Sequence record: NZ_CP014128.2
DNA from: a plasmid
Reading direction: 5' to 3' (one strand)
Length of the DNA stretch: 64,000 nt
Both the position numbers and the translations under genes were made by a program. The notes under the pieces were generated by a model that searched no databases, was not told the origin of the DNA, and worked only from the letters and a program-made list of their open reading frames with translations. Positions 19,126-20,351 of this stretch are shown in pieces (the first letter of the stretch is position 1; each line of letters begins with the position of its first letter).

Positions 19126-20163
19126 TCAGCCGGGAATATCGGGTTCAGCATAGTGTTCCATAAACTCCACCATAGCGCCTTTATGCGCATCCACATGACG
19201 GATATAACGCATCAGTGTCTCCGGTTTTTTCCATGTGCCTTCCTGCATGATGCGGGCGACAGGATAGCCTTTATCAGCCATATCCTGAGCTGCGCCCACC
19301 CGTGCACTGTGACCACTCCAGCCAGTGTAGCGATTTTTGTTGGCCTTTATTGCGCCTGCTTTTCCAGCTGCTCGCCAGGCACGATTAAAAATCTGTTCCA
19401 GTGCCCGGGTACTCATTGGTTTTTCTGTAATCAGTACCCGGCCTGAGCGGTGTACTGCATTGAACAGCCAGGCATCAGGCTGACTGGAAAGGCCGGACGC
19501 CGCGATCCACTCTTCAAGTCGCCGGGTTGAATGAGCGCTGAGCGCCTTGATCAATCCGCCAGTCTGCACAATCGTTTTTGTCCACGCTACATCCAGAATG
19601 ATTCGACCATCACCGGCACGCATCACATCACGTACCCGTAATCGTGACAGTTCACTGATACGCAGTAGCGTTGCATAGGCGACATGCAAAAAAGCCAGAT
19701 CACGAAGCACCTGGAGATTACCAGAACCTGACCACTGTTTATCCAGCACCATCAGGTCTGTCAGCCTGAAGGCCACGGCCTGGCCAGCACGCTCGCCATT
19801 CACAACGGCAACACGGTTAATCTTCTTCATGGTACGGAAAACCAGCGGAGAAACATTCGGCACAGGCAACCCGGCGTTACGGTGTAACATCGAAATCAAC
19901 GCTGCATGGGACGTGACGGTCGAAGAGGCCCGTCCGCTTTCAGCCAGAAAAGAGAGATAGTCGCGCAAATCCTCTGCGCTCATCGGCAGGAAAGTGCGCT
20001 GGTTATCTTCTGACCACTGATTGCAGATTCGCATGACGCTAAGCAGCTGTCGCCAGGTATTGGGGGAAAATGCCTCTTTGTCCTGGACGAACTGCCTGAG
20101 CCGTTCGGTGATATCACTGTTCCGGTTCACCGACAGGCGGGTTAACGGCACTATCTCACTCAT
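19126..20163 (-). CDS. Cre-family tyrosine site-specific recombinase (345 aa)
   Basis: Aligns along its full length with P1 Cre, e.g. the C-terminus GWSGHSARVGAAQDMADKGYPVARIMQEGTWKKPETLMRYIRHVDAHKGAMVEFME against Cre AWSGHSARVGAARDMARAGVSIPEIMQAGGWTNVNIVMNYIRNLDSETGAMVRLLE. The catalytic R...H-x-x-R...Y residues are present. Confidence 0.85.
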   Translation of the reverse strand: MSEIVPLTRLSVNRNSDITERLRQFVQDKEAFSPNTWRQLLSVMRICNQWSEDNQRTFLPMSAEDLRDYLSFLAESGRASSTVTSHAALISMLHRNAGLPVPNVSPLVFRTMKKINRVAVVNGERAGQAVAFRLTDLMVLDKQWSGSGNLQVLRDLAFLHVAYATLLRISELSRLRVRDVMRAGDGRIILDVAWTKTIVQTGGLIKALSAHSTRRLEEWIAASGLSSQPDAWLFNAVHRSGRVLITEKPMSTRALEQIFNRAWRAAGKAGAIKANKNRYTGWSGHSARVGAAQDMADKGYPVARIMQEGTWKKPETLMRYIRHVDAHKGAMVEFMEHYAEPDIPG

Positions 20164-20199
20164 CTTTGCTCGCTTATTAATCAGAAAACGCGATGATCG

Positions 20200-20256
20200 C
20201 GCTACGTGAATTCTGAGAATTCAGCAGGGGGATTACCGGTCAGAATTTACGTAGCG
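20200..20256. promoter_or_regulatory. 17-bp inverted repeat pair (one mismatch) with a 23-bp spacer, immediately upstream of the recombinase gene
   Basis: cgctacgtgaattctga ... tcagaatttacgtagcg. It also contains the GAATTCTGAGAATTC palindrome. Confidence 0.35.
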
Positions 20257-20317
20257 TTGCCATTTTGCAGCGTCATCTTTACTGGCCATTATCATAACCC
20301 GCTAAATTTCCTGTGTC

Positions 20318-20351
20318 ATGACTTCGTATAAGAATAATTATACGAAGTTAT
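20318..20351. other. loxP-like 34-bp recombination site (13-bp inverted arms, 8-bp asymmetric spacer)
   Basis: ATGACTTCGTATA-AGAATAAT-TATACGAAGTTAT, against loxP ATAACTTCGTATA-ATGTATGC-TATACGAAGTTAT. Arms differ at one of 13 positions on the left and are identical on the right. The spacer is different. The site lies about 155 bp upstream of the Cre-like gene. Confidence 0.6.

Follow-up and report, generated by a model that had tools for sequence, protein, structure and literature searches.

The window, by which we mean the whole stretch of 64,000 nucleotides analysed here, carries a gene for a Cre-type recombinase with a loxP-like site in front of it, set between feoAB and a sulfur-metabolism cluster. 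What such a pair does in this place, and why its site should resemble loxP so closely, are the questions that the locus raises. The gene and the site are as follows:

19126..20163, minus strand: gene for a Cre-type tyrosine recombinase, 345 aa plus stop, with an ATG start (from the open reading frame, homology and dN/dS)
20318..20351, no strand assigned: lox-type site ATGACTTCGTATA-AGAATAAT-TATACGAAGTTAT, with arms at 20318-20330 and 20339-20351 and an 8-bp spacer at 20331-20338

Judged by its sequence, the protein is a genuine Cre-family recombinase with a loxP-like target site of its own. P1 Cre (residues 11-340) aligned with residues 7-336 of the window protein at 42% identity and 59% positives over 332 aligned positions (4 gapped positions), and the Cre chains in the PDB matched residues 10-336 to Cre 14-340 (E = 2.6e-76), covering both the N- and the C-terminal domain. 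The original prediction of a diverged enzyme that aligns with Cre from end to end was thus borne out. Pfam reported Phage_integrase alone for the 345-aa protein (E = 1.4e-20), and NCBIfam gave weak XerC/XerD-like matches that lay far under the cut-offs. The Cre catalytic set (R173, K201, H289, R292, W315 and Y324) is kept in the alignment at six of six positions; counted from it, the predicted catalytic residues are R168, K196, H285, R288, W311 and Y320, and the equivalent of Cre R259 is R253.

Read toward the recombinase gene, the site is ATAACTTCGTATA ATTATTCT TATACGAAGTCAT. Its right arm equals the loxP arm and its left arm has G in place of A at position 3, so that 25 of the 26 arm positions match, and it lies 154 nt upstream of the ATG; the 34-bp site with 13-8-13 layout, a spacer different from that of loxP and a distance of about 155 bp had all been given correctly. 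By our own arithmetic (79 x 128,000 / 4^26), about 2e-9 equally good sites would be expected by chance in 64 kb, both strands counted. A full-text search of the literature for the site sequence gave no match. We compared 37 related genome loci from different species, and nearly all have a 13-8-13 inverted repeat of the same type upstream of the gene, in most of them at about 150-290 bp from it. Of the 34 columns of the site, 25 never vary in an alignment of nine orthologues, versus 1 of 69 in the aligned distal flank, and the recombinase gene has a dN/dS of 0.07-0.09 against six orthologues, with dS up to about 1.4; gene and site are both under purifying selection.

A few loci depart from this layout. 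In Pantoea coffeiphila and Erwinia sp. JUb26 (L023:3027-3060 and L034:3061-3094) the site precedes the gene by about 900 bp, and these two copies, which lie on contigs of more than 1 Mb, are probably chromosomal. In L011 and L019 the site is degenerate or unrecognisable, and in L036, L037 and L038 the gene is truncated; these five may be decaying copies.

The surroundings of the module were compared with sequenced plasmids. From position 1 to 43,328 the window runs collinear with positions 25,126-64,067 of pPag1, the closed circular plasmid of P. vagans C9-1 (167,983 bp), at an identity of 85-96%, and dozens of other Pantoea plasmids of the pPag1 replicon type are collinear with the window as well. 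A megablast search with positions 16000-24000 retrieved 75 plasmid records, 62 of them from Pantoea, the top matches being P. vagans plasmids (94.9% identity over 98% of the query). The exact window protein is also present on an assembly contig of 197,944 bp. Collinearity with a closed plasmid places the module on a large Pantoea plasmid and not on a chromosome. The plasmid pPag1 has one RepB-family initiator and one ParA/ParB pair, is typed as mobilizable, and carries the window-type recombinase as the sole site-specific recombinase annotated in the PLSDB gene table, which is incomplete. FeoA and FeoB lie on the upstream side of the recombinase gene; on the other side follow a SnoaL/SgcJ-type protein, two SfnB-type proteins with an acyl-CoA-dehydrogenase fold and a luciferase-like monooxygenase. 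There are no phage genes near the recombinase gene, nor any in the pPag1 annotation, and the original description of these neighbours was correct. A homology break at the lox site was considered as the trace of a past exchange and rejected: synteny resumes at the SgcJ-type gene, past a variable intergenic stretch. An origin from a foreign island was rejected too, since the GC content of the gene (0.53-0.55) resembles that of its neighbours, and AT-rich DNA is confined to the intergenic parts.

For the part of the window past about 43.3 kb, pPag1 of C9-1, a biocontrol strain, offers no equivalent except one diverged match of 0.9 kb. This part holds a plasmid-borne Hrp type III secretion and effector island (47512-63979) and, about 2.5 kb past the end of the collinearity with pPag1, a truncated ORF with 73% DNA identity to an Rpn gene elsewhere in pPag1, which may mark the boundary of the island insertion:

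45820-46410, minus strand: truncated Rpn/YhgA-like (Transposase_31) ORF
47512-53130, minus strand: AvrE/DspE-family effector, 1872 aa
53310-54764, plus strand: pectate-lyase-domain protein
55232-56455, minus strand: YopJ-family acetyltransferase
57031-58281, minus strand: harpin
59267-61405, minus strand: secretin
62024-62647, minus strand: HrpE/YscL
63200-63979, minus strand: YscJ/HrcJ

Relatives of the recombinase are found mainly on plasmids. With tblastn (E <= 1e-100) they were detected on 117 plasmid records, 103 of them from Pantoea and the others from Rahnella, Duffyella, Erwinia, Serratia and Rouxiella; a few relatives lie on contigs of more than 1 Mb and are probably chromosomal. In the protein database identity to the window protein is 85-97% across the P. 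vagans/agglomerans group (96-97% for the recombinases of P. vagans pPag1-type plasmids) and 60-75% in other Erwiniaceae and in Yersiniaceae. In the phage collection the relatives are P1/P7 Cre (42%), D6 Dre (43%) and a Cronobacter phage protein (41%), and none exceeds 43%. By these comparisons the recombinases form a plasmid clade that is distinct from the P1-like phages. A phage origin was considered and rejected, because the phage collection has only P1/P7/D6-type relatives at 41-43% identity.

The reading that we favour, with a probability of roughly 0.7, is that of a multimer-resolution module on the backbone of a pPag1-type plasmid (about 160-200 kb) in a strain of the Pantoea vagans/agglomerans group. 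The recombinase would bind both 13-bp arms of the one lox-type site that precedes its gene. A plasmid dimer, arising by homologous recombination or from replication, would carry this site twice in direct repeat, and a recombinase tetramer would synapse the two copies and exchange strands in the 8-bp spacer via a Holliday-junction intermediate; the monomers so restored would then be segregated by the ParAB system. We infer this role because there is one site per replicon, the enzyme is encoded by the backbone and it is of the simple Cre type. The backbone with RepB and ParAB and a locus common to 62 Pantoea plasmid records lend it support, as does the count of sites, which is one for pPag1 (167,983 bp) and one for the window (64 kb).

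The number of sites bears directly on the original prediction, which had looked for a second site and had taken its absence, together with an inactive enzyme, as grounds for refutation. The proposed search for a second arm copy was run on the window and on closed pPag1. Neither 10-bp nor 13-bp arms (up to 3 mismatches) nor a paired-arm score revealed a second site in the window beyond chance, and a second site is likewise absent from the whole of closed pPag1, which contains exactly one lox-type site. A resolution system needs one site per replicon copy, and the absence of a second site does not count against it.

The alternative that survives best, although we consider it improbable, is integration or cointegration: the recombinase would fuse the plasmid with the chromosome or with a second plasmid bearing the corresponding site, a step that might serve mobilisation or Hfr-like integration, and resolution would be no more than the reverse reaction. 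In simple Cre-type systems excision is favoured over integration, and neither the window nor closed pPag1 offers a second site, both of which speak against this alternative. Cre-type enzymes do catalyse intermolecular integration (PMC4957104), some relatives lie on contigs of more than 1 Mb, and pPag1 is mobilizable. The relatives on such contigs are probably chromosomal, and plasmid dimer resolution cannot be their role.

Plasmids that share a host also argue against fusion. In P. agglomerans CFSAN047153, plasmid _2 (L044; pPag1 replicon type) has the site CTAACTTCGTATA-ATTGTTCT-TATACGAAGTCAT, and plasmid _3 (L045; a different replicon type, MOBF) encodes a 63%-identical paralogue with the site CTAACCTTATATA-ATTACCTT-TATATAAGGCCAG. 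Plasmids B (L047) and C (L046) of strain AR24 show the same pattern; sites of the form ATGACTTCGTATA-ATTGTTCT-TATACGAAGTCAT are carried by L047 and by L002. The paralogues on such co-resident plasmids are 60-63% identical to the window protein, and the sites differ both in their arms (ACTTCGTATA versus ACCTTATATA or ACATTATATA) and in their spacers, which would block fusion and keep each system replicon-specific. This suggests that the co-resident systems are replicon-specific and mutually orthogonal; a paralogue of its own with different arms and spacer on each co-resident plasmid is what would be expected for replicon-specific resolution.

Much less likely is the version first proposed, a Cre/lox module of the chromosome, which would excise or invert the chromosomal segment between its site and a second one. 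The feoAB and sulfur genes look chromosomal at first sight; however, the same gene order is found on closed circular plasmids with RepB and ParAB, the exact protein lies on a contig of only 198 kb, and the second site was found neither in the window nor in closed pPag1. The chromosomal assignment is given up in view of the collinearity of the window, at 90-96% identity, with pPag1 and dozens of Pantoea plasmids.

Slighter still are the chances of a decaying remnant of a P1-like phage-plasmid, of which cre and lox alone are left. Cre and Dre are the closest characterised relatives, and the layout with the site upstream matches that of rox and dre in D6 (152 bp). However, the ORF is intact, the dN/dS is about 0.07, and the site and its regulatory region are conserved; the phage homologues stay at or below 43% identity, the pPag1 annotation is without phage genes, and the GC content of the gene is like that of its neighbours. 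The cre-lox region of a P1-like phage-plasmid (Punavirus) is not what surrounds the module either, since its neighbours are feoAB and sulfur-metabolism genes and not c1, cra, c8, ref and structural genes. The original suggestion that the module may be a remnant does not hold, because site, promoter and leader have stayed conserved between genes whose dS reaches about 1.4, beside a flank that cannot be aligned, and because the dN/dS is low.

A lox scar from laboratory strain engineering, which arms nearly identical to loxP might bring to mind, can practically be dismissed, since the site stands at the same place beside a native Cre homologue in the plasmid and genome records of natural isolates that were examined, on natural plasmids of many Pantoea species, with spacer and arms that vary with phylogeny, and since its spacer is not known as one of the standard engineered variants (lox511, lox2272, lox5171, loxN and m2); the original prediction had rightly taken the site to be native.

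Each of these alternatives is contradicted by at least one tested feature. Multimer resolution is the best-supported reading. The module is an ordinary, functional-looking plasmid-maintenance module.

The likeness of the arms to loxP had been regarded as unexpected for so diverged an enzyme. Across the family the arm consensus is nnnACTT-y-r-TATA, and variation of the core is confined to positions 8 and 9. C8G9 arms belong to the window clade (at least 75% identity to the window protein), C8A9 arms to most relatives at 65-70% identity, and T8A9 arms to the branches of Mixta, Erwinia and Rahnella. The base at position 8 changes together with the equivalent of Cre R259: Arg is always paired with C8, and Pro with T8 except at one mixed site (L009). 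Pro at the Cre-259 position and T8 arms are likewise found for Dre, Panto, a Rahnella candidate and the additional paralogues. The neighbour-joining tree groups the Arg/C8 proteins as a single derived clade nested in Pro/T8 lineages, with Cre outside, so that the loxP-like arm state is either retained or convergent. In helix J, S257, T258, R259 and E262 of Cre are conserved in the window protein; many other positions that contact DNA in the Cre-loxP structures differ from Cre (K43R, M44Q, K86S, Q90S, R241A, K244R, G263Q and N317K). Discrimination between loxP (C8G9T10) and the sites rox and pox has been assigned to K43, R259 and G263 (Karimova et al. 2016, PMC4957104), and the pairing of Arg or Pro at 259 with the arm variants in the sequences compared here agrees with these published specificity determinants. 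Loss of surprise follows from these data: two core positions vary family-wide, position 8 follows the R259 equivalent, and the pair YR4/lox4 provides a precedent (PMC10250229). The loxP-like arms are one of about four available states and no striking coincidence. The natural series of arm variants (C8G9, C8A9 and T8A9), paired with Arg or Pro at Cre-259, could guide recombinase engineering.

Between the site and the start codon lie two further elements that may control the recombinase:

20291..20319, minus strand: sigma-70-like promoter of the recombinase, -35 ATGACA at 20319-20314 and -10 TATGAT at 20296-20291, consensus score 10/12
20200..20256, minus strand: 17-bp inverted repeat CGCTACGTnAATTCTGA with a 23-nt gap, arms at 20200-20216 and 20240-20256, 94% complementary

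The match to the consensus and the conservation suggest that the first of these may act as a promoter: GACA and TAnnAT are invariant among the nine orthologues. Its -35 box shares 2 nt with the gene-proximal end of the lox arm. Because the box abuts this arm, occupancy of the site would probably limit expression of the recombinase; an enzyme bound at its site would plausibly occlude the promoter and so regulate its own synthesis. The inverted repeat lies within the leader of roughly 120 nt between promoter and start codon, and its arms are nearly invariant in the nine orthologues despite saturated synonymous sites. An invariant GATC comes after the repeat. The consensus fold of the leader yields a hairpin, whose paired positions are without variation in the nine orthologues and give no informative covariation. 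The repeat could be an operator or an RNA hairpin; a search of the whole 64-kb window against Rfam returned no known RNA family.

More widely, we tentatively consider that the Cre-type systems of Erwiniaceae plasmids have diversified into mutually orthogonal sets of enzyme, arms and spacer, and that the pPag1 lineage has reached, or kept, the arm specificity of P1, although this is a doubtful generalisation at present. If it is true, each of the two or three large plasmids that reside together in Pantoea would resolve its own dimers without mutual fusion, and the invariant 17-bp leader repeat would represent a type of control element not yet described for such recombinases. Since Pantoea agglomerans can be lysogenised by P1, the resident enzyme could act on the phage site, and the phage Cre on the resident one, under natural conditions. 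The analysis gives a natural context, that of a plasmid-backbone resolution module with distinct co-resident paralogues, to enzymes so far studied only as tools.

As tools, the recombinases of the window group have already been mined and tested for genome engineering, and the phenomenon of loxP-like arms is published. About 500 pairs of Cre-type recombinases and sites were predicted, and 17 of them tested, by Jelicic et al. (2023, Nucleic Acids Res 51:5285, PMC10250229). Cre-type enzymes with loxP-like sites have been mined systematically, and the locus carries little weight as a discovery. Among the tested enzymes YR4 is 42% identical to Cre, and the half-sites of lox4 are one nucleotide off loxP; YR4 recombines lox4 efficiently in E. 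coli and in human cells, in E. coli without added factors, and YR4 and Cre recombine each other's sites, both ways (PMC10250229). The identity to Cre is the same as here, and the difference of one nucleotide in the half-site fits sites of the window clade such as ATGACTTCGTATA. From these published figures we consider it quite probable that YR4 is an orthologue of the window recombinase. By analogy with this pair, the window enzyme would be expected to recombine its own site. If it behaves like YR4, it would not be orthogonal to Cre, and its value as a tool would be limited; the idea of a novel orthogonal lox tool is not supported, because YR4 and Cre cross-recombine and only the spacer would be heterospecific. 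The paper on YR4/lox4 does not discuss natural role or plasmid context (PMC10250229).

Another published candidate is a protein of plasmid pRAHAQ02 from Rahnella sp. Y9602, which appears in a published list without a reported test (Karimova et al. 2016, Supplementary Figure 1, PMC4957104). It is 68% identical to the window protein, belongs to the same plasmid clade of Erwiniaceae and Yersiniaceae and is predicted to use a 13-8-13 site of the ACTTTATATA type; unlike the window protein, it has Pro where Cre has R259, and position 8 of its arms is T. Its natural role is not discussed there either (PMC4957104).

The original prediction had proposed a comparison with known Cre-type enzymes, which gave identities to the window protein of 42% for Cre, 43% for Dre of phage D6 and about 47% for Panto of Pantoea sp. 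aB (the Panto/pox system; PMC4957104), the Panto sequence being approximate, repaired from machine-read text. Dre and Panto have Pro at Cre-259 and T8-A9-A10 arms, whereas the window protein has Arg and C8-G9-T10 arms like loxP. The D6 rox site lies 152 bp upstream of dre, a spacing similar to that in the window. The rox spacer ATTGGCAT recurs, in the same orientation to the gene and with other arms, in several Pantoea sites: in L017, L020, L026, L027 and L029 (at about 3763-3838, locus coordinates) and in L043:742-773.

A close parallel is Cre/loxP itself: 42% identity from end to end, the catalytic residues, the 13-8-13 layout, 25 of 26 arm positions, a site that precedes the gene on its own replicon and the proposed role in plasmid multimer resolution are all shared. 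The module differs in being carried by a non-phage plasmid, in the distance of its site from the gene (154 nt, versus 418 nt from loxP to cre in P1, with the cra ORF between) and in its spacer, read toward the gene (ATTATTCT versus GCATACAT). Austin, Ziese and Sternberg reportedly recognised P1 Cre/loxP as a multimer-resolution system in 1981. It is so described in the literature (PMC10999674), and the module in the window would do for a Pantoea plasmid what Cre/loxP does for P1. Other plasmid systems follow the same general plan with different means, and are set beside it here. F ResD/rfsF, ColE1 cer/XerCD and RK2 ParA/res have one site per replicon and resolve dimers before partition; they use other recombinases or have accessory needs, whereas the system of the window appears to be accessory-free and of the Cre type.
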